Origin: a virus
Lineage: Duplodnaviria; Heunggongvirae; Uroviricota; Caudoviricetes
Direction: 5' to 3' (one strand)
DNA: 50,015 nucleotides
Virus record (IMG/VR): IMGVR_UViG_2917403263_000001
This document shows, one piece after another, positions 1 to 50,015 of the stretch (position 1 is the first letter of the stretch; each line of letters begins with the position of its first letter). The position numbers and the translations under genes were made by a program. Under the pieces are notes generated by a model. It had not been told where the DNA came from. It made no database searches and saw only the letters and a program-made list of their open reading frames with translations.

Positions 1-585
1 CTATTTTTCTTGCCCTAACTGATTGCTAATCGTCATTCCTCTGATTGAACATAAATCCTTCAGATTATTCAGTTCTTCCTTCATCTCCCGCTGGCGCTGA
101 TAAATCTCGTCATTGCGCTCAATCTGCGCCTGAGCCATTGCTGCTGCCAGTTCTTCCAGTTCCGGCATCGACAGTCTCACCTGTTGATTATCAGCATCAC
201 CCCACGCCATAACGCCCCGTGCTGTGTTGGATTTCGATGCCATCACCACCGGAGACAGGCGGGCTATTGAGTCAGGACCAGCGTTCCAGGTGCGGCCGTT
301 CCATTCAAATGTGAACGGCTTCGCCTCCTGTTCTGCACGCCATGCTTCGATTTCCTTTTTTTTGGCATCCTTTGCCGCTGCGATAAATTCTGACGTGACT
401 GTAAACGAGGCTATTGCACCCCATTTGCCGCTTTGCAGCTCATGCCAGACGCACTTGCCCGTCGTCGCTGTATCTTCTGCCGTGGCTGTGTAGGGGATGG
501 GGGCATCCATCCCTTCAAATAAAACCTCGCAGTCAATAGCACCAGATTCGGTATAGCAGGGATTGATGATTTCTTTGATTTCCAT
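1..585 (-). CDS. tfa: Tail fiber assembly protein (Tfa)
   Basis: 194-aa ORF directly downstream of the side tail fiber gene with 1-nt stop/start overlap; sequence resembles lambdoid Tfa proteins (recalled). Confidence 0.75.
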   Translation of the reverse strand: MEIKEIINPCYTESGAIDCEVLFEGMDAPIPYTATAEDTATTGKCVWHELQSGKWGAIASFTVTSEFIAAAKDAKKKEIEAWRAEQEAKPFTFEWNGRTWNAGPDSIARLSPVVMASKSNTARGVMAWGDADNQQVRLSMPELEELAAAMAQAQIERNDEIYQRQREMKEELNNLKDLCSIRGMTISNQLGQEK

Positions 586-2656
586 TATGCAATCCTCATG
601 AATAGCGCCACAAACGCCTGATCGCTGTATGTCAGCATGGTGCCTGACATTGCAATGTACGAGCCAGGAAGCGAATGTGAGTTGCAGCCGACAACGTAGA
701 ATCTGGGGGTTGATGCATAAGTGCCTGAAGGATTAAATGGACACTCAATTCCAACTGGCCCCAGACGCGAACCCGGATAAGACTGTCTTCTGACAACCTT
801 TATATTTTTATCACCGTCAGCAGTTCCCTGATATGCAGCTAATATCAGGCCTCCAATATCGGGGTCACCCCAGTCGTAATTGACGTATGAAAATAGCATG
901 TTACGAACTTTGTTTTTTGTCATGCTAATCTCTTCCCATCCACCTAACGAGCCACCGAAAGTGGAACCGATGAGAACATCCCTATTTATCCCGTAAAAAA
1001 TCAGCAACTTCTTTACTCTGCGAGCATTGCTATAACCATCCCGATTTGTGTTAATCCACAAAACATCGATGATCCCCTCAAAATTCACACTGGATATCGG
1101 CGTGTATCCATTGAATTTATGGTAGTACCTGCCAGGAAGAGCATAATTAGCCCAATTTTCCAGTGCAGAGGCACTATTAAAACTTACACGCCCGTAATAT
1201 TCGTCTTCATACGTGTACCCAAACCCATAAGCGCCAGCCAACGCCAAGACCGAATTCATCATCGCCTTATCGGGCCATGTAAAGGGATTACTGATGACTG
1301 TTTTATTAGCAACCCCCCTGATTTGCAGATTCTCCTGTGCTTTAGCCAGTGCTGACGAGCCAGCATCAACGATTTCCTGAAGGTTGTTTTTTATCTTGAG
1401 ATACCCGCCATCGAGGATATCGTCAATTTCGCCTTTGGCATTCTCTGCTGATTCTGCAGCTGTCGCTGCATCCTGCGCATACTTTTGAGACTGCTGCTCA
1501 TGCAGCTCTGCTTTCTGTGCGTGTTTTTGGGCGTTCTGTTCGCTCAGTGCCGCATTGTCAGAACTTGTTTTTTGAATCTGTGGCACTGAATTCAGAATCC
1601 TTCGCTGCCTGCCGTGCTTGCTTTACCGCGTCCGCGACATCCTGCACACCCTGCTGCACCTGCCCGGCGTTCTGCTCAACTTCTGAAGCCAGTTGTTCAA
1701 CATATTGCTTATCTTTGGCAGCCGCGTCAGCGTTCTGTTGCACGTTATTCGCCAGCGTCTGGCAGTCTTCCTTTATCTTCTGTGCATCGGCTGCGTGTTG
1801 CCCTGCCAGTCGCTCGCTTTCCGCTGCTGCATCCTGACTATTTTTCGCCGCCGTTTCGCTGGTTTTGGCATTCGTTTCACTGGTTTTTGCTGCCGTCTGG
1901 CTGGACTTTGCGTTGGTTTTCGCTCGTCTTTGCTGCTTTCTGGCTGTTAGCCGCAGCAGTTTCTGATCCAGCTGCCGATGTCGCAGAACCGGCTGCCGCG
2001 CTCTCGCTTGCTTCCGCTGCATCCTGGCTGTTTTTCGCCGCAGTTTCACTGGCTTTGGCATTCGTTTCGCTGTCTTTTGCTGCCGTCTGGCTCGACTTTG
2101 CTGCTGTCTCGCTATTTTTTGCGTTGGTTTCCGATTTTTTGGCTGCTGTCGCGAAGTTTTCCGATGCAGTCTGTGAGGCCGCTGCTGCCTGTGCGCTGTT
2201 AGCTGCATCCGTTTCTGAGCTTTTCGCCGCGTCCTTCGATGATGCCGCTGCAGTTTCGGATTTCTTTGCCTCTGCTGCGCTCTGAGAGGCGGCTTCAGCG
2301 TTACGCGCAGCTTCGTCCACCATTGCCTCAAAACGGCGCAATGCCTCCGGCATAACATCATCTTCCGTCATGGCACCGAGAAAATCGTTCAGTGTTCCCG
2401 GCCTGGAACCGTCATAGACGGTAATGGTTCCGGCATGTGAAGGCGGAAAACCTTCAACCAGCAGGATAACGCTGTACTGACCATACTCAACATCCATGCT
2501 ATAACGCCCGGCTTCATCCGGATTTTCTGAGGCCACCGTATTCACCACGACTGTGGTGCTGTTACGCTTTGCCTTCAGTTGAATAGTGCAGTTCTGTATT
2601 GGTTTTCCCGCACCATCTTTCAGTACACCTGAGATTTTTACTGCTGCCATATCCAC
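585..2656 (-). CDS. stf: Side tail fiber protein (Stf-like), reading frame broken twice as assembled
   Basis: N-terminus MDMAAVKISGVLKDGAGKPIQNCTIQLKA matches lambda Stf; coding continues in three successive frames (ORFs 1877-2656, 1558-2361, 585-1586) with SETAAK-type repeats; breaks at T4 run ~1912 and T6 run 1568-1573. Confidence 0.75.
1825..2115. repeat. Tandem ~190-bp direct repeat inside stf (2 diverged copies)
   Basis: 1825-1925 and 2018-2115 are near-identical (gctgcatcctg..ttttcgccgc..gtttc..ctgg.tttggcattcgtttc); encodes repeated SETNAK/SETAAK blocks. Confidence 0.8.
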
Positions 2657-2714: not shown

Positions 2715-3314
2715 TCAGAATTTATAACCGACACCAACGATGAAACCGTCAGTGCGCCAGTCGCCACTGCCGGAACCTTCATAAGCAAGGTCAATGGCCA
2801 CGGATTCGGTCGGGTTAAACTGCACGCCAGCCCCCCACGCCAGAGACGTGTTGCTGTGGCGACCGCCATCACTTCCGGTCAGCACATCGTGCGTTTTCCC
2901 CTTGTTGTCAGCTACGCGGAGATAATCCCCGGAAAACGTCGAAACACGGCTGTAAGCCACACCCGCCATCGCATAAGCACTGAACCATTCATTCACGCGC
3001 ACAGATGGTCCCGCCATCATGCTGAACCAGCGGTTATGCGCTGAATCTTCATGCCAGCGGGTATCGCTGTAACGGGTAATCTGGCGATTCTTGTCTCCTG
3101 CATAGCTGAATGACGTCACCAACCCCAGCGTGTCCGTAAATTCATAACGGTATTTCACGTTAATGCCCTTCAGGTCATCGTTGCCGGGCATATCAGTATG
3201 GGACTGAAGATACCCGCCGCTTAGTGTGGACTGATGCTCTACTGCACTCGCTGGCGTACCAGCGGCGACCAGCCAGACTACTGCAGACAGAATAACAGCA
3301 CATAATTTACGCAT
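2715..3314 (-). CDS. lom: Lom outer membrane protein (Ail/Lom family)
   Basis: 199 aa with signal peptide and C-terminal GVGYKF beta-barrel terminus; sits between J and stf as in lambda. Confidence 0.85.
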
Positions 3315-3383: not shown

Positions 3384-6300
3384 TCAACGAATACTGATAC
3401 CGGAAGCAGCTTTTTTGGTCACAATCACCGTACAGTCTGTGATGTTACCTGCGCCCCGATTGCCTTTCTGGAAAATCTTAAACTCCAGAGTGACGCTACC
3501 ACCACCACTCGGCATATCAATAACCGCGCTGTAACTACCGGGAATGGCTCCTTTAGTTTCTCTGGATGCGATTAATACGCCGTTTTTACGAACTTCAAAA
3601 CCATAACCCGTGTATCGCGTACCTCCCGGTTTATTACCGCTCCCCGGATCGTCATACGCCACACCGTTAAAAATAATGGGCGGAATAATGATTTGGCGGT
3701 CAAAGTTATGATCATCGTAAATGGTGACTGTAACCGTCCCGCCTGGTGTTTCCGTGTTACCCCACGTACCAGCCTGTTTCGGGAATGATTTGGATACAGT
3801 TTTAACGAAGTCACCTCTGACCTGGTTCGCCTCCAGCATGCCCTTAATCGTACAGTTTTCATTTACCGTGACGTTGTTGAGCGTCCCGGAGTTCGCATTC
3901 ACGTTACCGCTGATATCAGCATTTCTCGCCGTCAGCCGCCCGTCCGGTGTCAGGGAAAATGCCGGAGGATTACCACCGCTGGTAATGGTGGGAGCCGTCA
4001 GATATTTCAGAAACACTTCGTTCATGAATATCTGGTTGCCCTGCGCCACAAACATCGGCGTTTCATTCCCGTTTGCCGGGTCAATAAACGCGATACGGTT
4101 AGCGGCAACCAGGAACTGGCTCAGTTTGCCTTCCTCCGTATCCTCCATGCTGAGGCCAAGCCCCGCGACATAATGCCTGCCGTCTTCGGTCTGCTCAATT
4201 TTGACGCCCCACATGGCATTCCATTTATCGTTGGCGTCTTTCCACTCTTTCGAAAACTCCTCCAGTTTGCTGGCGTTATCCTCCGTCAGCTCGACTTTTT
4301 CCAGCAGCTCTTTACCGAGATGGGATTCGGTTATCTGGCCTTTGAAAAAATCCAGGTAACCTTCGGCATCATCGCTCGCCCGACCGACAGCCTCCACGAA
4401 TGCCGATTTGCCAACGGTGTTCACACTGCGGATATAAAAATAATAATCATGGCCCGGTTTGATATTGATACTGGCAGCTATCCAGTACAGCGCCGTGCCA
4501 AGATAGCGGGCTGCGGTTTCAACCTGCCTGATATCCGCAATCCGCTTTTCCGAGAACCAGAACTCAAACTGTACCGTCGGGTCATAAACGGCAAGATGCG
4601 GCGTTGCGGTTATCTGAAAATAGCCCGGCGTCAGCTCAATCCGCGACGGTGCTGCCGGTGCGGCAATCCGGAACGATACCGACGCCGGATCGCCCTGCTG
4701 CCCCCACGCATTTACTGCCCGGACTGTCAGCGTGTAACGCCCCAGCGCCAGTTGCCTGAAGCGGTATGTGGTTTCCGTCGTCCGGGCTGTGCTGACAAGC
4801 CGCTCACTGCCGTCATCCGCTGCCACGGTCAAGCGAAGCGTAAAGCTCACCCCCTTCACCACCTTCGGCGTGTCCCATCGCGCCAGTACCTGATATTCCC
4901 CGCTGTCTGCGGTGACTTCGGCAGTCAGGTGCTGCACCGCTGGCGGCGTGACACCATTCACCGTGCCACTCTGGTCGCCGTCAAAGTGCGCCCCGTTATC
5001 CACGATGGCCTCTTTTTCCGGCACATGCTGCACGGCGGTGATGGCATACGTGCCGTCGTCGTTCTCACGGATACTCACACAGCGGAACAGGCGCTGACGC
5101 AGCGTCGGCAGCTTCAGCCCCCACACGCTGTATTCGGCAACGCCGTCAGGAACACGGCTCACTTTTACCTTCACGCCGTCGGTGACGGACTGGACCTCCA
5201 CGCTGACCGGATTCCCCTGCCCGTCAACCAGGCTTATCAGCGTGGTGCCGGAGGATGGCAGCGTGATTTCACGGTCGAGCGTCAGCGTCCGGGTCTGGCT
5301 GTTCACCGCCAGCACACGCCCACCGATGCTGATCCCCGCATAGTCATCATCACAGATTTCAATGACATCGCCCGGTACATGGCGAAGCCCTTCTGCGCCC
5401 ACGCTGAAGTCCACGGTCTGCGTTTCCAGCAGCTCCGTTTTAATCAGCCACAGCCCGGCGCGGTGTGCCTGCCCCCGGCTGGTACAGCCAAAGGCATCCA
5501 TCTTCGTGACGTTACGACCGTAACGGAGAATGGCCTGCGTGTCCTCCACAAGCTCTGTCGCCGTCTCCCAGCCGTTATCCGGGTCAATCCAGTTCACCTC
5601 AACGGCATTATGGCGGTCCTTCAGGGCGCTGAAGCTGTAGCGGAACGGCGCGCCATCATCCGGCATCACCACATTACTGTGGTTATAGGTCCACACCTTA
5701 TCCGACGGTCGGTCCTGCACGAACGTCAGCGTCTGCCCGTTCCATACCGGCATACAGCGCATCGCCGAGCAGAAATCACTGAGAACATCCCACGCCTTAC
5801 GCTGTGTGGTCAGGTAAGCGTTACAGGTGATGCGCGGCTCCGTGCCACCAAAGCCGTCCGACACTGACTGGTCGCAATACTGGCCGATGACATACAACGC
5901 CCATTTATCCACATCCGCCGCACCAAGACGTTTCCCCATGCCGTAGCGCGGGTGGGTCAGCATATCCCACAGACACCAGGCCATATTGTCGCTGTATGCT
6001 GGCTTAAACGTTCCGTCCCAGATACCGCTGTATTGCCGCGTCTGCGGGTTATAGTTCGACGGCACCTGCAGAATGCGCCCGCGAAGATGATAATTACGGC
6101 TCACCTGCTGGCTGCCGAACTGCTCCGAATCCACCTGCACGCCGACCAGTGCCGTGTTCGGGTAGCACTGTTTCACATCGATGATTTCGGTGTATGACGA
6201 CCAGAGCGTTTTGTTCTGCAGCTGGTCTGTGGTGCTGTCCGGCGTCATCCTGCGCATCCGGATATTGAACGGGCGCGGCGGCAGGTTATCCACCACCACC

Positions 6301-8849: not shown

Positions 8850-9188
8850 CAGATCACCACTTCGTCAAACTGACACGAAAAATCGGTATAGGTGATATGT
8901 TCTGTCGCTGACCACGTTCGACACACCACTCTGATTTTTCTGTTAATACCCGGCGGGCGCCAAAAAAAAAGATTTATAGCCTTCATGCCGGGCTAAAAAT
9001 TTTTCAAATGAATCACGTTCATTCGCCTCAACTTTGAAATCACAGGTGAAAACGCGCAGAGAATGATTAAGTCCATTTGGACTTCGTTGCTCATAACCAT
9101 CGCCAAATCTTACAGTTTTTATCGATGGTTTATTTTCTGTTTTCATTCCATCCTCTGGTAACCAGTGAAATTCTTCCGTATTAGCCAC
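8849..9188 (-). CDS. M: Minor tail protein M, frame broken at an A9/T9 homopolymer
   Basis: 81-aa ORF (8943-9188) matches the N-terminal two-thirds of lambda M (VRFGDGY..); the C-terminal ~30 codons ([24 protein letters not shown]) continue in another frame after the homopolymer at 8962-8970; one base fewer restores a single ~111-aa ORF. Confidence 0.75.
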
Positions 9189-12100
9189 TTAACATTCCCC
9201 CATCACGTCGCATATTTAACAGAGTGCCCTGTACCCGCTGATCAACCATCCCCATAAGTGCTTTTATTGCCTGAGGGCCAATCTCTCCATTCTGGCCGTC
9301 ATTTTGAATAGTGATTTGGTATACAGGGGCATAGGTAATATCTCCGCCTCCATTACCACTTTTACTATTAATAGCTCTGACACCAAGAGAACCATCGGAA
9401 GTTCGTGTTAATGGCATAATGGCTTCCGGTCCAGCCTCACCAAAAACACCCGCCCCTTTTGCAAAAGCAAAAAATTGCGGGGAATCATAAATACCGTTCG
9501 AATACGTGCTCAATGATGGAGACTCATAAACACCGCCCTTTGCATTCGGAATAAATTTACTAATAGCACTCCCGATAGTTCCTAAAATCCCCCCAGAAGA
9601 ACTGTTACTAATGCTGTCGAAAATCCCAGTAATTGAAGCCTTTAATGCTATTCGACTAAGATCCGAAATCACGGAAGTAGCGAAAGAACGAAAATTTGCC
9701 TTGCCTGTCGTGACAAAATCACCCAGCGCATCGGTCATCCCATCAAACATCAGAGTCGTGGTTGATTTTATCTGCTCACTGATATACTTAGTGTCATCCA
9801 GCCAGTTATTAAATCCCTGGGAGGCACCACTAACCCAGTCTCCTGCCTGAATATCGAGCTGCTCGTTTTTCTGTCTGACAATTTCTTTTTCTCGTTCCAG
9901 AGAGTCATTCAGAGCCTGCATTTTCTCCTGAAAAACATGATCTGACATTCCACGGGATTTATCTGCATAGTCACGTTCAAGTTGCAGACGCTGGTTGTTA
10001 TATTCACGTTCAATCCGCAGTAATTCCTGCTGGCGTTGCTGATTTTTATCGCCAAGCCCATAACCAGCAATCTGAATATCATACCCCTGCTGACGATTAT
10101 CAATCGAAGCCTGCAATGAATCACGCCATGCGGCTATTTCGGCGGATTCCTTGATTAGCCTGTTATTTTTTTCAATCGCAACATTTTTCTCCATCAACGC
10201 GCTTATTTCTTCCCGGTGTAAGAGAAGCGATTTCTGATCCTGGGTTAATTTCGATAACGGTCGTGACTCCAGGTCGGCAATCTGCTGACGCCACTTAACC
10301 AGTTCCTGTTCAGAGGAACTTAATTTAACGGTCAATTCAGCTTGTGAACTTAGTAACGCATTCTGTTGATTCAGATGATCAATCATTCGTTGAGCAGCAT
10401 CATCCGAATAACCTTTCGCCTTTGGTTGCTTTGGATCTTTATAACGCTCATTTATTTGAGCGACAAGCTTATTATATTCTTCCTTTGAATACTGATTCTT
10501 TAGCTTTTCCAGTTTTGCAAGTTCACTGGCTCTCTGCTGCTCCCGAGTCTGATATTGTTTTGAAAAGGCATCTGCTTTCTGTCTGAGTTCAATTCCTTCC
10601 TGTTGTCGCTTGTTGTAATTGTTTATTGATGAATTTAGTACGTTCTGAGCAATTTTTTCTGATTGAAGTGCGCCTAATTGCTGTTTTAATTGAGCCAGCC
10701 TTTTATTTTGAGCACCACCATCTCCAATACCACCTACCCCGAAAACGCCTGGCCTGGTATTTTTTTCTATTTCATCAATTTGACGGAGAACATCTGAGAT
10801 TTTTTGATCAAGAGATACCTCACGCCCAACAGCCAACATGGAATCCCATGCCCATTTTGCGGAGTCAGCGACGGCTTTCCATGCAGTCTCAAGATAACCA
10901 AGATTTTCTTTAATCTGGTTGGTGCGCTGGATCATTGAGGATGAGTATGCTTCCGTCGCAATGCGAGCAGCCTCCTGCTGGTTCCCTTCATCCTGCAGCG
11001 CCTTAATCTGGTTATAAGTCGCCAGTGTCAGAAAATGGTACTGATCATTAAGTTTTGATATGGAACTGACAGGATCCTTTGCAATTTCATTGAAGTCATT
11101 AACAAGTTGATCGGTTGCTATTCCAGTTAATTCACTCGTTTTTACTATCGCAGCCGTCACTTGCTCCAGCGAATTGCTCGCTACCTTTCCCGAACGCACA
11201 AGCTGGTTTAATACTGCCGCCGCAGCGCCAGTTGTCGAATCAGCTGCATCCCCGGCACGTTGAGCTATATCGGCCAATTGCCCGCTGGTTGTCCCCAACT
11301 GATTTCCGGTAAGAATAAGAGATTTATTAAATTCTTCCTGCTCCTGAGAGCCTTTATAGTAAGCTAGCCCCAGGACACCAACGGCTGCTGCGGCCAGGGT
11401 AAAAGGATTAATTAATCCCAGCACATAAGAACCAACACCTTTGATCGCCGGGCCAATACCACCGAACATATCTTTTAGCTGACCGCCCTGCTGCATTAAC
11501 ACCATAAACGGTGACTGGCCTGTGGACAATCCAACCACAATATCAGTCATTTGTGCAGGCAACATGCGCATAGCAAAAGCCGTTTGTTTTGCCGACATTC
11601 CGGTTTTGCTTAGCTGCGATTGAGTAGCCTCAAGCTCACTCCGCATAGCACGGAGTTTTCCTGAAAGCTCCTCATACATTTCAGGAGAAAGCATCCCCTT
11701 GGCTTTTGCTTCGCTGAGTTGCTTTTGCTGCTCTGTCAGGCGGTTAAAAGCTGTTCCGACAGGATCGAGTTGAGCAATCAGACGTTGCAAAGCAGTAACT
11801 TGTTCATCATGCGCTTTTGCTGCTTCTCGTTCTGCCTGAGCCTCTCCTGTTAGCTCTCGCCGCGTTTCCTGTATTTTTCGGCTGTAATTATCAAACTGAG
11901 AGCCATTTATTTGCCCGGATGAAAGTGCAGCATTAAGTTCATCCTGCTGTTGTTCAAGATTTCTTAGCGCCGCTGCCAGAGGGTCGATCTTGTCCAGCAT
12001 TCTTTGAAAGGCCTGAACCTGCGCTTCCTGCTGGGCGGCAGCAAGTTTTCCGGCCTTCTCGGCTTCTCTCTGCGCTTGCGCAACCCCACTCAATTCCTCT

Positions 12101-12414
12101 GTGGTTTCATTAAGTTTACGGGCAAGAAATTCATATTCTTCTTTATCAATAAGCCCTTTATCGAAATATTTCTTTAATTCAGAATAGCGTCGACCGACAG
12201 TATCAATTGCGGCACCGACAGGATCAATAGCTGCTTTTAATTTTGCGAGCGCGTTCTTCTCATCTTCTGTTGCCTTAGTCACTTTCCCTGCACTGGTGGC
12301 AGCGTGTTCTCCAGCCTGCGTCATCTTTACTAACGCAGAAGACAGATTACCCACATTTTTCTCTGCTCCAGTGCTATCAATAATTATTGCGAGACGTGAA
12401 GTTTGCTCAGTCAT
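9181..12414 (-). CDS. Tail tape measure protein
   Basis: 1077 aa, coiled-coil rich, Gly-rich hydrophobic central segment; located between the chaperone genes and M. Confidence 0.85.
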
Positions 12415-12483: not shown

Positions 12484-13041
12484 TCAGAAACGGTAACCGA
12501 TACCAGCCATCCAGGTACCGACTTTCACATCACCCAACTTTGAGTATTCATAAGATGCATCAATTACCAGGTTTGGCATTGGGTTAATCTGGAAACCAGC
12601 ACCATACGCTGCAGAGGTTTTATCTGAAGATGCAGAAAATTCACCATCCCAGACATGAGCTTTTCCATATCCAAGACCAACCAGAGCATATGCACTCAGA
12701 TAGTCATTAAAACGATAGGACGGTCCAGCTGTCACGGAGAAATAATCAAGATCTCCAGATGCTAATTTGGTGTATTGTGGTTTTCCTTGAAGATCGGGAA
12801 CATAGCCATAAGCATCTTTGTTGTAATTGGTGTGCACAAAAGAACCTACCACACCCCAGTCGTTATTCAGTTCATAACGGTATTTAATATTAAAACCGTT
12901 CAGATCCTCGCTGGCACTATCAACTTTTGCATGGCTACGAGCATAACCAGCAGAAATAGTACTCTGCAGTAATTCAGCGTTTGCAATGCCAGTTGCAAAC
13001 AAAGTTGAAACTATAATGGTAGCCAACACTGCTTTCTTCAT
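12484..13041 (-). CDS. Ail/Lom/PagC-family outer membrane beta-barrel protein (moron)
   Basis: 185 aa, signal peptide MKKAVLATIIVSTLFATGIANA, C-terminal GIGYRF; AT-rich upstream region 13042-13210; own terminator; inserted between the chaperone and tape measure genes. Confidence 0.8.
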   Translation of the reverse strand: MKKAVLATIIVSTLFATGIANAELLQSTISAGYARSHAKVDSASEDLNGFNIKYRYELNNDWGVVGSFVHTNYNKDAYGYVPDLQGKPQYTKLASGDLDYFSVTAGPSYRFNDYLSAYALVGLGYGKAHVWDGEFSASSDKTSAAYGAGFQINPMPNLVIDASYEYSKLGDVKVGTWMAGIGYRF

Positions 13042-13211
13042 AAAATTACCTTTTTTATAAAAACATTGTTACGACAGCAAAAATTAAGCTGTGCGGCACA
13101 CATTAAAATACCGAGTATATTTGAAAGTCAACTATCAATTTCGCACTAAATCATATATGTGCATTAAAAATATACGTAATAATATAATAAAGTCGACATT
13201 TACTAAATATC

Positions 13212-13490
13212 TTATTCATCAAAATCGTCAGTTCGTGAAAAATAATTATCATCGAGTGCGAAAATCACGGCTTCGAATTCATCACCGTCTATTAATATCG
13301 GGTGTGCTTTTAAATAGTCGTGTATGTCAGATATTGACAAAGGTAGCGGAATCCCGGGCATGCCTGCATAACGCCTGGAACGAGACATTACTGAATACGC
13401 ATACAATAACTCACGGACAACGGGGTCTATTTCTGGCTCCGGGAGGCGGCGGCAACCTGAGTTTTTCTCGCTTCCATCTTGCCTTTTCAC
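13212..13490 (-). CDS. Possible T-frame extension of the tail assembly chaperone (or separate small ORF)
   Basis: Frame is open from 13540 down to the stop at 13212 and lies +1/-2 relative to the G-like ORF; it overlaps the G stop region. Confidence 0.35.
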   Translation of the reverse strand: MKRQDGSEKNSGCRRLPEPEIDPVVRELLYAYSVMSRSRRYAGMPGIPLPLSISDIHDYLKAHPILIDGDEFEAVIFALDDNYFSRTDDFDE

Positions 13491-13529
13491 CCTTTTCTCC
13501 CCCGAACTCCGATAACCACCGCTGGGCGG

Positions 13530-13991
13530 CTATGGCTTTTTTATCGTATCCTGCTTCTGCTGCTCTTTACCTTGGGCGATGCTGGCTGCTTCTGCAAGGA
13601 TCTGCCAGTACAACTCCGGATTCTGCTTAAGCAGCGCGATCCCTCGTTCTGGCGTATATTCCAGTGCAACCTCAACACCATCAACCAGTTCACCAACCCC
13701 TTTCCAGTCTTTCAGCAGATAACGAGCGGCATTATCAATGAGTAAATCATCAACAGAATCCACCTCGGAAACCTTTGCAATATCAAACTCCTTCGTTCCG
13801 ACGTGCAAGCTGGCATCCATTTTCTCAATGTGGCGACGGATTAATGCATTACGGGAGCGATACTGATCGTTATCGCTGCTTGCCACCAACAGTTTTAACC
13901 CGTCTACAGGTTTTAAGTCCTTCATTGGGGTAAACCAGCGTTCTCCACCGATGATAATTTTCTGATTAAGAATAAACATCCATAACCTCAT
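13530..13991 (-). CDS. Putative tail assembly chaperone (G-like)
   Basis: 153 aa, acidic; position between major tail protein and tape measure; ORF ends right after a slippery heptamer A_AAA_AAG. Confidence 0.55.
   Translation of the reverse strand: MRLWMFILNQKIIIGGERWFTPMKDLKPVDGLKLLVASSDNDQYRSRNALIRRHIEKMDASLHVGTKEFDIAKVSEVDSVDDLLIDNAARYLLKDWKGVGELVDGVEVALEYTPERGIALLKQNPELYWQILAEAASIAQGKEQQKQDTIKKP
13536..13542 (-). promoter_or_regulatory. Candidate ribosomal slippery heptamer A_AAA_AAG in the 0 frame of the G-like gene
   Basis: Coding strand reads ACG ATA AAA AAG CCA TAG; heptamer is in register with the ORF. Confidence 0.45.
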
Positions 13992-14039: not shown

Positions 14040-15002
14040 TCAACTAATCGCCTCAGCACTGGCTTTTGCGATCACGGCAGCCGGGGAGGCTTTTTTTCTG
14101 ATTATCGTAGGTGCTTCATCTGCTGCGGTAATGCTCAATTGAACCTGGATAATGTCGGTATTACCCCCATCAGGCCATTCACCTGACACCTGAACCTTCG
14201 GGAAACTGAAAGTGTATGCCCCCTCTCCATTCGAAAGCGTGAAGCTGAACGGAACTGTTTCTCCAGTCAGTGTTTTACTCCAGATTTCCCACGCAGCTTT
14301 AGACCATGAAAGCGTCACCGTACCGGACGGTGTAAAAGTAGTCGGGATATTTGCTCCTGCATAAGGCGAGCCAGTGCCGATACAACGCTGTGTCTGGAGT
14401 TTGTTATCGAACTGAATATCAAAACTGTCGATACAAAAACCGTTACCTCCGGCAACACCATTCAGGCTTACTGCTGAAACCTCCTTAAACGAATAACGTA
14501 GCTTTCCTGCACTATCCACAGGTTCGCCTTTGATAAAATTCGTATCATCGGCCTTTGATTCCCAGTCCAGCCCGGCAAAGGTTACGGTCGCCGTAATATC
14601 GCCGTCGTTAGGGATCTGCATTTTCCATGAGCCAACCTGCGCTCCTCTGACAACAGAGGCAATTCCGACATCGGACGCATAGGTCGCCAGAGAAAATGTT
14701 ATTCGCTCATTCCCCATTGTCAGAGAATCACCTGACCATTCCGCGCCGAAACAGGATGCAAGAAAATCATCATGTTGACCCCAGCGAAATTTGGTACCAA
14801 CATCACCGCCAACATCCACAGTGCCAGGCGTCGCCCCCTGAGCCATCCGGGAGCCACCAATCTCATTATTTTCGCCTTTATTCTGGGTGGGTTTTACTCC
14901 CCAGCTTGTGCGTTTTAATAAACTCCAGTCACCACTTGCTGGTGTGGTGCCTGCAACTGTCTCCCGGATAAATGCCGAGATAACCTTTGCACCTGAACTC
15001 AC
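14040..15002 (-). CDS. Major tail (tube) protein
   Basis: 320 aa, Gly/Thr/Ser-rich beta-type sequence; immediately upstream of the chaperone gene. Confidence 0.65.
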   Translation of the reverse strand: MSSGAKVISAFIRETVAGTTPASGDWSLLKRTSWGVKPTQNKGENNEIGGSRMAQGATPGTVDVGGDVGTKFRWGQHDDFLASCFGAEWSGDSLTMGNERITFSLATYASDVGIASVVRGAQVGSWKMQIPNDGDITATVTFAGLDWESKADDTNFIKGEPVDSAGKLRYSFKEVSAVSLNGVAGGNGFCIDSFDIQFDNKLQTQRCIGTGSPYAGANIPTTFTPSGTVTLSWSKAAWEIWSKTLTGETVPFSFTLSNGEGAYTFSFPKVQVSGEWPDGGNTDIIQVQLSITAADEAPTIIRKKASPAAVIAKASAEAIS

Positions 15003-20058: not shown

Positions 20059-21446
20059 TGATATCCATCAGCATCACACTCTGATTTTTTAATTCATCGA
20101 TCACTTCCTCTGGACGGGAATCCTGATCAATAAATTTCAACGCCTGCAACACCCGAACCGCATCAATCTGACGTATATCACCGCCCTGACGCAATGACTG
20201 AACAGCCAGCGCGGAGGATGAGTCAAACACCTGGGCAGATACATCCAGTTCAGTGCGCACATCCACATTGCCGCCGCAACTCTCTCCGATCCATTCCGCC
20301 ATTATCTGGAGAATATTATCGAGGGCATCTTCGAGGGAGTTCGCCATTGTATAAAGCGGCGAGTTTTCCTGCATCCGCTCTTCATTAGTCTGATCAACAG
20401 ATTTGGTGGATGTATTTTCAGCCCGCAGAAGTTTAGCGCCGGCATGACGCATCTGATTTTCCAGCTTCTCCAGTTGAGGTTTCGCCAGATTCTATCGCTG
20501 CCCCACTATGTTCAACATATTCGAGGCCATTTTTTGTTCTGTCCTCAAAAATCGTAGCGGTGGATGCACCAACCGTCAGTTCTTCATTTCTGTCCAGCCC
20601 GTAGGCCACCAGCAATGGGACGCGGGCAACATGAAGAATATTGTCCTGCTCGCTCTGGCTTTGCCAGTGCTTGATATTCAACAAGCCAAGATTAAGCAAT
20701 GGCGGTGTACCACGCATAAACCCGATGCGCTTCGTGTACAACGTAACCAGGGGAATATCATCACGGCTGGTATCCCATGACTCGTGAAGCGCCCAGACAG
20801 ATTCGCCATTAGTACCTTCGCTGCGTCGATAAATTTCAACGCGACGGGGCATAATATGGCGGATCTGCTCCACCTTCTTCTGCCCGAAATCATCACCATC
20901 AACAATGATGACCTCTTTTATACGCAAATCAGTAAGAACAACTTTCCCTTTTTCAACTTTCGATTTCCATCCAATAACCTGGCGTGGATTCAGCATCGTA
21001 ACGTATGGGCGACCACCAGCCGCATTTTCATCGGCTTTTGTCCGGATCTCCTTCATATCCGTTCGTGGATAGTCCACCAGCGCATGTGCCACACCATACT
21101 GAAATGCGAGGCTGAAAAATTGCTGCGCCCACACATCCAGTCGGCTCCCCTCCATGTCGATATTTTCTGCATATTCCCTGATTTTTTCCGGCGTTTCCTC
21201 ACTCAATACTGTCGGCTCTGCAAATATGCGTCCAATATTTTGCTTAATGCTTTCTTCATACACAGGAAGTAGCGTAGCCACAGACAGGCGTTTTTTATAA
21301 GCGTCTTCATCTTCGTTAGGCCATTTGGGGAGATAAATTCCCCCCTGCCTGCGCATTTCAAGCGTACCGCCCATCAGTGCGTCATTAATATCCCACGCCT
21401 CCAGCATATCGTTATAGTCGAGGTTGGGTGTTGATATATCAGCCAT
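20039..21446 (-). CDS. Portal protein, reading frame broken as assembled
   Basis: 337-aa ORF (20433-21446) and 137-aa ORF (20039-20452) in different frames overlap by 20 nt; together ~470 aa between TerL and the head morphogenesis gene; break lies in 20433-20500 (T3 at 20480-20482 or T4 at 20457-20460). Confidence 0.6.
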
Positions 21447-48778: not shown

Positions 48779-50015
48779 ATGTCTAAATTACCAACAGGTG
48801 TCGAGATTCGAGGTAAATACATTCGCATCTGGTTCATGTTTCGAGGAAAACGATGTCGGGAAACATTGAAAGGCTGGGAGGTTACTAACAGTAACATTAA
48901 AAAGGCCGGGAATTTAAGAGCATTGATAGTTCATGAAATCAACTCCGGTGAATTTGAGTATTTAAGACGTTTTCCCCAGTCCAGCACTGGGGCAAAAATG
49001 GTGACAACGAGGGTCATAAAAACGTTCGGGGAGCTTTGTGATATCTGGACAAAAATTAAAGAGACAGAGTTAACAACAAACACAATGAAGAAAACGAAAT
49101 CACAATTAAAAACAACTCAGGATAATAATTTGTGAGAGTACACATATATCACATATTCGTTATAGCGATATCTTAAACTACCGGAATGAACTGCTGCATG
49201 GAGAAACGCTTTACCTGGATAATCCAAGATCCAACAAAAAAGGAAGAACCGTGCGCACAGTTGATAACTATATCGCCCTGCTCTGTTCGTTGTTACGTTT
49301 TGCGTATCAGTCGGGATTTATATCAACCAAACCATTTGAAGGAGTAAAAAAATTACAGCGAAACAGAATAAAGCCTGATCCGTTATCTAAAACAGAATTC
49401 AATGCATTAATGGAAAGTGAAAAAGGACAGAGCCAGAACTTGTGGAAATTTGCCGTTTACTCCGGGCTTCGTCACGGGGAACTGGCTGCTCTGGCGTGGG
49501 AGGATGTGGATTTCGAGAAGGGAATTGTGAATGTCAGAAGAAACCTGACGATACTTGATATGTTCGGTCCCCCAAAAACAAATGCGGGGATCCGGACGGT
49601 AACACTACTACAGCCTGCTCTTGAAGCACTGAAGGAGCAATACAAACTGACCGGGCATCATCGCAAAAGCGAAATCACTTTTTATCATCGGGAGTACGGC
49701 AGAACCGAAAAGCAAAAACTGCATTTTGTTTTCATGCCCAGGATGTGTAACGGAAAACAGAAACCTTATTACTCGGTAAGCAGTTTGGGTGCGAGATGGA
49801 ATGCAGCTGTAAAACGTGCTGGTATTCGCCGCCGTAATCCGTACCATACGCGACATACTTTTGCCTGCTGGCTGTTGACGGCAGGAGCGAACCCGGCATT
49901 TATAGCCAGCCAGATGGGGCATGAAACTGCGCAGATGGTGTATGAAATTTACGGTATGTGGATTGATGACATGAACGACGAACAGGTAGCTATGTTGAAT
50001 GCGCGGTTATCGTAG
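48779..50015 (+). CDS. intR: Tyrosine integrase (IntR-like), reading frame broken as assembled
   Basis: N-terminal 118-aa ORF (MSKLPTGVEIRGKYIRIWFMFRGKRCRETLKGW) and C-terminal ORF from ~49109 (catalytic R..HxxR..Y region NPYHTRHTFACWLL..GHETAQMVYEIY) lie in different frames; shift near aaaaacaactcagg at 49098-49111. Confidence 0.8.

Follow-up and report, generated by a model that had tools for sequence, protein, structure and literature searches.

Introduction

The closest described counterpart of the locus analysed here is the G/T gene pair of phage lambda, in which a -1 programmed frameshift yields gpG and gpGT (Levin, Hendrix and Casjens 1993, as cited in PMC5009743), and the conservation of the G/GT frameshift has been treated by Xu, Hendrix and Duda (2004, as cited in PMC5009743). 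In lambda the G:GT ratio is about 30:1 and roles have been described for both products, and, of the -1 sites in E. coli, A_AAA_AAG has been reported to be one of the most prone to shift, with a 3' CC as the most shift-prone flanking dinucleotide (PMC5009743). In this study, we examined a G-like tail assembly chaperone gene in a stretch of 50,015 nucleotides of viral DNA (IMG/VR record IMGVR_UViG_2917403263_000001), hereafter the window, to which all coordinates refer. An initial annotation of the window had drawn attention to a slippery heptamer just before the stop of this gene, and had proposed that the long open frame behind it was reached by a non-canonical programmed frameshift or was disturbed by an error in homopolymer length. 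We provide evidence that the locus, part of a Rac-like prophage, is very probably a conventional G/GT cassette for tail assembly chaperones of the lambda type, masked by one spurious C.

Results

Reading frames at the end of G

The 3' end of the G ORF reads GAT ACG ATA AAA AAG CCA TAG (protein ...DTIKKP), with 6 nt from the heptamer to the end of TAG and a 3' CC flanking the heptamer, and translation agrees here with the initial annotation, which had the ORF ending 6 nt after an in-register A_AAA_AAG (Table 1). Gene callers place the start of G at ATG 13979, which gives 149 aa. G has a precomputed Pfam match to PF27119 (Phage_YdaY), a local Pfam search with G gave no match, and an exact match of the 153-aa product is indexed in 289 blocks of a public collection.

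The 780 bases from 13991 to 13212 translate in one frame as 260 codons with TAG as the sole internal stop, thus the long open stretch of 105 codons directly behind TAG (13529..13215) is in frame 0 with G, and not in the +1/-2 frame to which it had been assigned. It had further been remarked that a run of five A would fuse the frames directly, and this is wrong because the long downstream stretch is already in frame 0. The true +1/-2 frame meets a stop at the heptamer and many further stops downstream on translation. The -1 frame after the heptamer is open to 13414 in the deposited sequence and encodes 41 residues (AIAAQRWLSEFGGEKGEKARWKREKLRLPPPPGARNRPRCP*), so that the short -1 extension, previously put at about 45 codons, is real. 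An extra C at 13446/13445, 90 nt downstream of the heptamer, makes the deposited T extension look divided between the -1 frame and frame 0; the T core is in frame 0 as deposited and in the -1 frame once the extra C is taken out.

Table 1. Features of the G/T locus and its surroundings, and single-base insertions in the window relative to sibling copies of the prophage
Feature	Coordinates	Strand	Remarks
Major tail tube gene	14040..15002	minus	PF18906 Phage_tube_2, E 1.7e-31; immediately upstream of G
G-like tail assembly chaperone ORF	13530..13991	minus	153 codons, ATG 13991 to TAG 13532-13530
Slippery heptamer A_AAA_AAG	13542..13536	minus	X_XXY_YYZ register; followed by CCA TAG
T extension, first part	13447..13536	minus	-1 frame, AIAAQRWLSEFGGEKGEKARWKREKLRLPP
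CC instead of single C	13445..13446	minus	one base read as a spurious insertion that breaks the -1 frame
T domain core	13212..13444	minus	..EPEIDPVVRELLYAYSVMSRSRRYAGMPGIPLPLSISDIHDYLKAHPILIDGDEFEAVIFALDDNYFSRTDDFDE; stop TAA 13214-13212
Ail/Lom outer-membrane protein moron	12484..13041	minus	PF06316 Ail_Lom, E 6.9e-32; between T and tape measure
Tape measure protein gene	9181..12414	minus	1077 aa; precomputed Pfam TMP_2, TMP_4, Tape_meas_lam_C
Insertion, A>AA	20475		portal split into 337 + 137 aa
Insertion, C>CC	13446		T domain
Insertion, T8>T9	8970		minor tail protein M, 81 aa vs 112
Insertion, A3>A4	1920		tail fibre
Insertion, A>AA	1566		tail fibre; 687 aa split together with the insertion at 1920
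Insertion, A7>A8			chromosomal flank, intergenic

Error profile of the assembly

Ion Torrent chemistry miscounts the lengths of base runs. The window is 100% identical to PDID01000001.1 (GCA_004745145.1) of Escherichia cryptic clade II strain E3659, a draft (PDID00000000) assembled with MIRA and SPAdes from single-end Ion Torrent reads of 35-400 bp at 40x coverage (PMC6639607). It was compared with three other assemblies of this prophage, GCA_005781135.1 (VATQ01000006.1) and the Logan assemblies of SRR8835201 and SRR6148330, all of which come from other runs or isolates and are not established as E3659 itself. The base-by-base comparison spanned 20,558 and 20,600 bases, with a union of about 30.3 kb that includes about 7 kb of chromosomal flank, and gave 0 substitutions, 0 deletions and six single-base insertions in the window, each of them extending a base run. 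Five of the six break genes, namely those for the portal, T, minor tail protein M and, twice, the tail fibre. The copies in GCA_005781135.1 and SRR8835201 are identical to each other, and that in SRR6148330 carries no window insertion within its overlap. Six insertions with zero substitutions are the signature of Ion Torrent run-length error, not of natural divergence.

Several of these sites have features of their own. The DUF4055 portal gene encodes 468 aa in the siblings, and at 20474-20475 the window reads CAAC on the minus strand vs CAC; since the additional base is missing from three otherwise identical copies, it is probably also an Ion Torrent error. At 8962-8970 the minus strand of the window has T9, and both the siblings and the E. 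coli relatives have T8. The tail fibre insertions, at 1917-1920 and 1565-1566, leave three overlapping ORFs (1877..2656, 1558..2361 and 585..1586). SRR6148330 (L025 / L024) has run-length deletions of its own, T5>T4 at the equivalent of 20551 and G3>G2 at 5390, and its portal and J genes are split by these, a pattern suggestive of error-prone flow-based sequencing here too, possibly within the same project. The accession ranges of SRR6148330 and SRR8835201 likewise hint that both runs may belong to the same laboratory's project.

The extra C is confined to one assembly

At the site of the extra C the window has GCCGCCGCCTCCC, vs GCCGCCGCTCCC. The additional base is missing from the three copies of the prophage that are otherwise free of substitutions (L025, L026 and L028), and likewise from every more distant relative compared. 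An exact look-up of the product of the 92-aa ORF that the insertion creates led to one assembly only, GCA_004745145.1, contig PDID01000001.1. Neither an insertion-bearing 33-mer in an exact scan of species-representative genomes nor a 28-mer in an exact scan of IMG/VR was found, as would fit a singleton insertion, although for the species-representative set this is weak evidence because that set holds one genome per species. On these comparisons, the extra C is unlikely to be anything but a run-length sequencing error in the Ion Torrent draft assembly.

Relatives of the G/T locus

The relatives aligned were Salmonella phage SPF_0923, Escherichia phage vB_EcoS-606R9 and E. coli ETEC1730, RM10740, SA31-1, M3 and S1-INA-02-A. 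Except in S1-INA-02-A, the heptamer and the CCA TAG behind it are the same as in the window (6/7), and all seven relatives are one C shorter, with GCCGCCG-CTCC[C/T]GG or GCCACCG-ATACCGG where the window has GCCGCCGCCTCCCGG. Of 23 loci from other sources, 21 have the motif of heptamer plus CCA TAG, S1-INA-02-A and Erwinia phage Gungnir39 being the exceptions, and because the motif is identical in so many of them the heptamer at the end of G is, on this sequence evidence, more than a chance match. In all 21 motif-bearing loci the -1 extension has 104-113 residues (107 aa in the three substitution-free prophage copies and 104-113 aa in 18 further relatives), and frame 0 stays open for only 33 (or 5) codons behind the stop. 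The combination of a 41-residue -1 tail with a 105-codon frame 0 occurs only in the window's own assembly.

The A6 run of the heptamer in the window is of the correct length. The initial annotation had suspected a homopolymer length error in this run and had named, as a finding that would refute its proposal, homologues with a conventional -1 arrangement and a different run length. It was right about the kind of error and wrong about its place, the A-run being intact and the extra C lying downstream; the conventional -1 arrangement was indeed found in the homologues, with the same and not a different run length in the 21 loci.

The two exceptions are of different kinds. In S1-INA-02-A (L009, NZ_CP145663.1, locus at about 13220) the stop TAG of G is mutated to TTG, with which G would extend 33 codons further in frame 0, and PGAP marks the gene as incomplete; it retains the heptamer and an intact -1 T frame and has no extra C. 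Gungnir39 (L004, about 2700-2712) does not have the full heptamer and its G ends in GCA AAG TAA. Its homologous T frame is a 115-codon -1 frame entered from A_AAG beside the stop, which suggests a putative single-tRNA slip at the stop-adjacent Lys codon, and its T is annotated as two small hypothetical genes.

In Klebsiella phage 5 LV-2017 (about 70% nucleotide identity), A_AAA_AAG CCA TAG is preserved, as is a homologous extension (AIEAQKWLKEFAGEQGEKAKWRREKLNLPPIPEPEID...). The first part of T is conserved as protein in the Klebsiella phage (AIEAQKWLKEFAGEQGEKAKWRREKLNLPP) and the Erwinia phage (VIEAQEWLNEFGGSDNGEKARFKREKLGLPP) at about 30-35% DNA divergence, thus the stretch from the heptamer to the extra C is coding in the -1 frame. 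The T core of the window is about 93% identical to those of ETEC1730 and RM10740 and about 80% identical to the SPF_0923 type. Against the SPF_0923/M3 type there are few differing bases upstream, followed by about 80% identity from near the insertion point (about 13445), and because identity falls there the T core belongs to a different, more divergent allele group. This mosaic boundary at about 13445 looks like a recombination junction inside the T extension, to judge from the alignment.

The corrected fusion and its neighbourhood

When the extra C is removed, the -1 extension has 107 residues (AIAAQRWLSEFGGEKGEKARWKREKLRLPPLPEPEIDPVVRELLYAYSVMSRSRRYAGMPGIPLPLSISDIHDYLKAHPILIDGDEFEAVIFALDDNYFSRTDDFDE) and the conceptual GT fusion 259. 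Residues 5-252 of the corrected fusion align with positions 13-245 of the 258 in the profile of PHROG 313, 'tail assembly chaperone' (E 1.2e-50). There is a further match of the T part to PHROG 1189, and the match of T to PF23812 (Phage_TAC_18) is weak and below the cut-off. Tail assembly chaperone genes canonically occupy the position that G/T has here in the gene order tube, G/T, (Lom moron), tape measure.

The window is a Rac-type prophage; its close E. coli relatives adjoin trkG and have a G homologue annotated as YdaY. The ORF at the right edge of the window (48779..49135), looked up with a view to the chromosomal flank on the other side, had no matching record. Among 5426 complete E. coli genomes, 1061 matched at least 80% of a query of 421 bases (13180-13600, with the 3' end of G and all of T). 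G is called 'hypothetical protein' or 'YdaY' in the RefSeq records examined, and the GT fusion is annotated in none of them.

The tail module contains two morons of the Ail/Lom family. The one at 2715-3314 follows J, as in lambda, and the placement of the one at 12484-13041, between T and tape measure, is unusual. The latter is present in ETEC1730, RM10740 and SA31-1 and absent in M3, APEC O1 and SPF_0923.

Discussion

A probable conventional -1 cassette and its rivals

The reading frames, an extra base that is absent elsewhere, the pattern of run-length errors in the assembly and the match of the corrected fusion to a tail assembly chaperone family all point to a lambda-type G/GT cassette hidden by one miscalled base. 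Such -1 cassettes are already known and are common in E. coli prophages, and the cassette itself offers no novelty. The occurrence of frameshifting, its efficiency and the binding roles of the products are taken from the lambda paradigm and from work on A_AAA_AAG in E. coli. By analogy with these, most ribosomes would translate G and terminate at TAG, and a few percent would slip -1 on A_AAA_AAG, where a single tRNA-Lys would re-pair from AAG to AAA. The slipped ribosomes would then read a T extension of about 107 residues and produce a GT fusion of about 259 residues, whose G part would putatively bind the tape measure protein and whose T part would recruit the tail tube protein.

Defects are frequent in prophages of the Rac type. 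It could thus be proposed that the extra C is a real mutation of E3659, and that we are looking at a decaying prophage which makes G and a useless -1 tail of 41 residues, and has neither functional GT nor tails. The frequent defectiveness of such prophages and the fact that the insertion stands in the deposited consensus speak for this proposal, but six insertions with 0 deletions and 0 substitutions in about 30 kb form an unnatural mutation spectrum, one of the six lies in the chromosomal flank, and all six extend base runs in 40x Ion Torrent data; moreover, all other structural genes are full length. We consider a genuine mutation very improbable.

Alternatively, the CC might be genuine and a working GT still be made, either by a -1 shift at A_AAA_AAG followed by a +1 shift on CCC_G or by read-through of TAG, and the geometry permits both. 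CCC_N after polyproline is a known +1-prone context. In the double shift, a +1 slip of tRNA-Pro on CCC_G (13443-13440) after PPPP would give ...LRLPPPP-EPEIDPV..., a product nearly identical to the relatives' LRLPPLPEPEIDPV. However, the CCC_G site and the long frame 0 behind TAG exist in one error-prone assembly only: this assembly has CCG CCG CCT CCC G vs the continuous CCG CCG CTC CCG of the siblings, and frame 0 behind TAG has 105 codons here vs at most 33 in 21 other loci. Read-through would also exchange the conserved linker AIAAQRWLSEFGG... for an unrelated frame-0 sequence, and two low-level shifts in succession would together yield much less than the roughly 3% required in lambda (PMC5009743). 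If it were true that the C is genuine and GT is still made, the locus would represent a natural translational correction of an indel, but we find this scarcely credible, and unusual recoding is neither needed nor indicated at the G/T locus.

Just as far-fetched is a separate initiation of T at GTG 13490, as implied by the gene-caller annotation of a 92-aa ORF. A Shine-Dalgarno-like GGGGAG does lie 6 nt upstream of this GTG, and a gene of 92 aa was called there, but the ORF exists only through the insertion, the corresponding sibling frame closing after 33 codons, and GTG 13490 is GGG in many relatives. In addition, distant phages conserve the protein sequence of the -1 segment that precedes this GTG, and G and T form a single chain in the PHROG 313 model. 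Finally, a -2 or +1 programmed frameshift at A_AAA_AAG that opens the long downstream frame, as had been suggested for this locus, has the presence of the heptamer and nothing further in its favour and is excluded, since it sprang from a frame miscount: the long frame is frame 0, the real +1/-2 frame stops at the heptamer and again downstream, and the homologues have the conventional -1 arrangement with the same A6G heptamer.

Implications for annotation

With the conventional -1 cassette as by far the best reading, the main value of this case lies in quality control, an apparent recoding signal being in all likelihood a miscounted base run in Ion Torrent data. Over about 30 kb this assembly has at least five further insertions of the kind, with the portal, minor tail M and tail-fibre genes split by them, and any other frameshift- or pseudogene-like finding from the window or from this genome should be compared with sibling assemblies before it is believed. 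That so widespread a cassette carries no GT annotation in the RefSeq records examined is an annotation gap and not a biological novelty.

Comparison with known systems

Like lambda G/GT, the locus lies between the tail tube and tape measure genes, and its short G ORF carries a slippery heptamer in register a few codons upstream of the stop. As in lambda, all error-free copies have a -1 T extension of about 100 residues, and both products would be expected to be absent from the virion. It differs from lambda in its heptamer (A_AAA_AAG vs G_GGA_AAG), in the Ail/Lom moron between T and the tape measure gene, and in having no sequence similarity to lambda G or T detectable by Pfam searches, its family being PHROG 313 / Phage_YdaY.

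With E. coli dnaX it shares the identical A_AAA_AAG shift site and a single tRNA-Lys (PMC5009743), whereas the only Shine-Dalgarno-like candidate stimulator here is AGGA, 7 nt upstream. A stimulatory hairpin was also considered and is unsupported: the fold predicted immediately 3' of the heptamer does not improve on shuffled sequence (z -0.65), and of its 11 pairs two show a compensatory change and seven are broken in at least one sequence, with breaks in distant relatives.

Close kin of the locus are ydaY of the Rac remnant of E. coli K-12 and the Rac-like G/T genes of SPF_0923, vB_EcoS-606R9 and APEC O1, with which it shares the trkG neighbourhood. The G protein is 100% identical to that of the APEC O1 prophage, and the end of G, the heptamer and the first part of T, all upstream of the insertion, differ from those of the Rac-like prophages at few bases. 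What sets the window apart from them is the extra C, together with a T core of the more divergent allele group.
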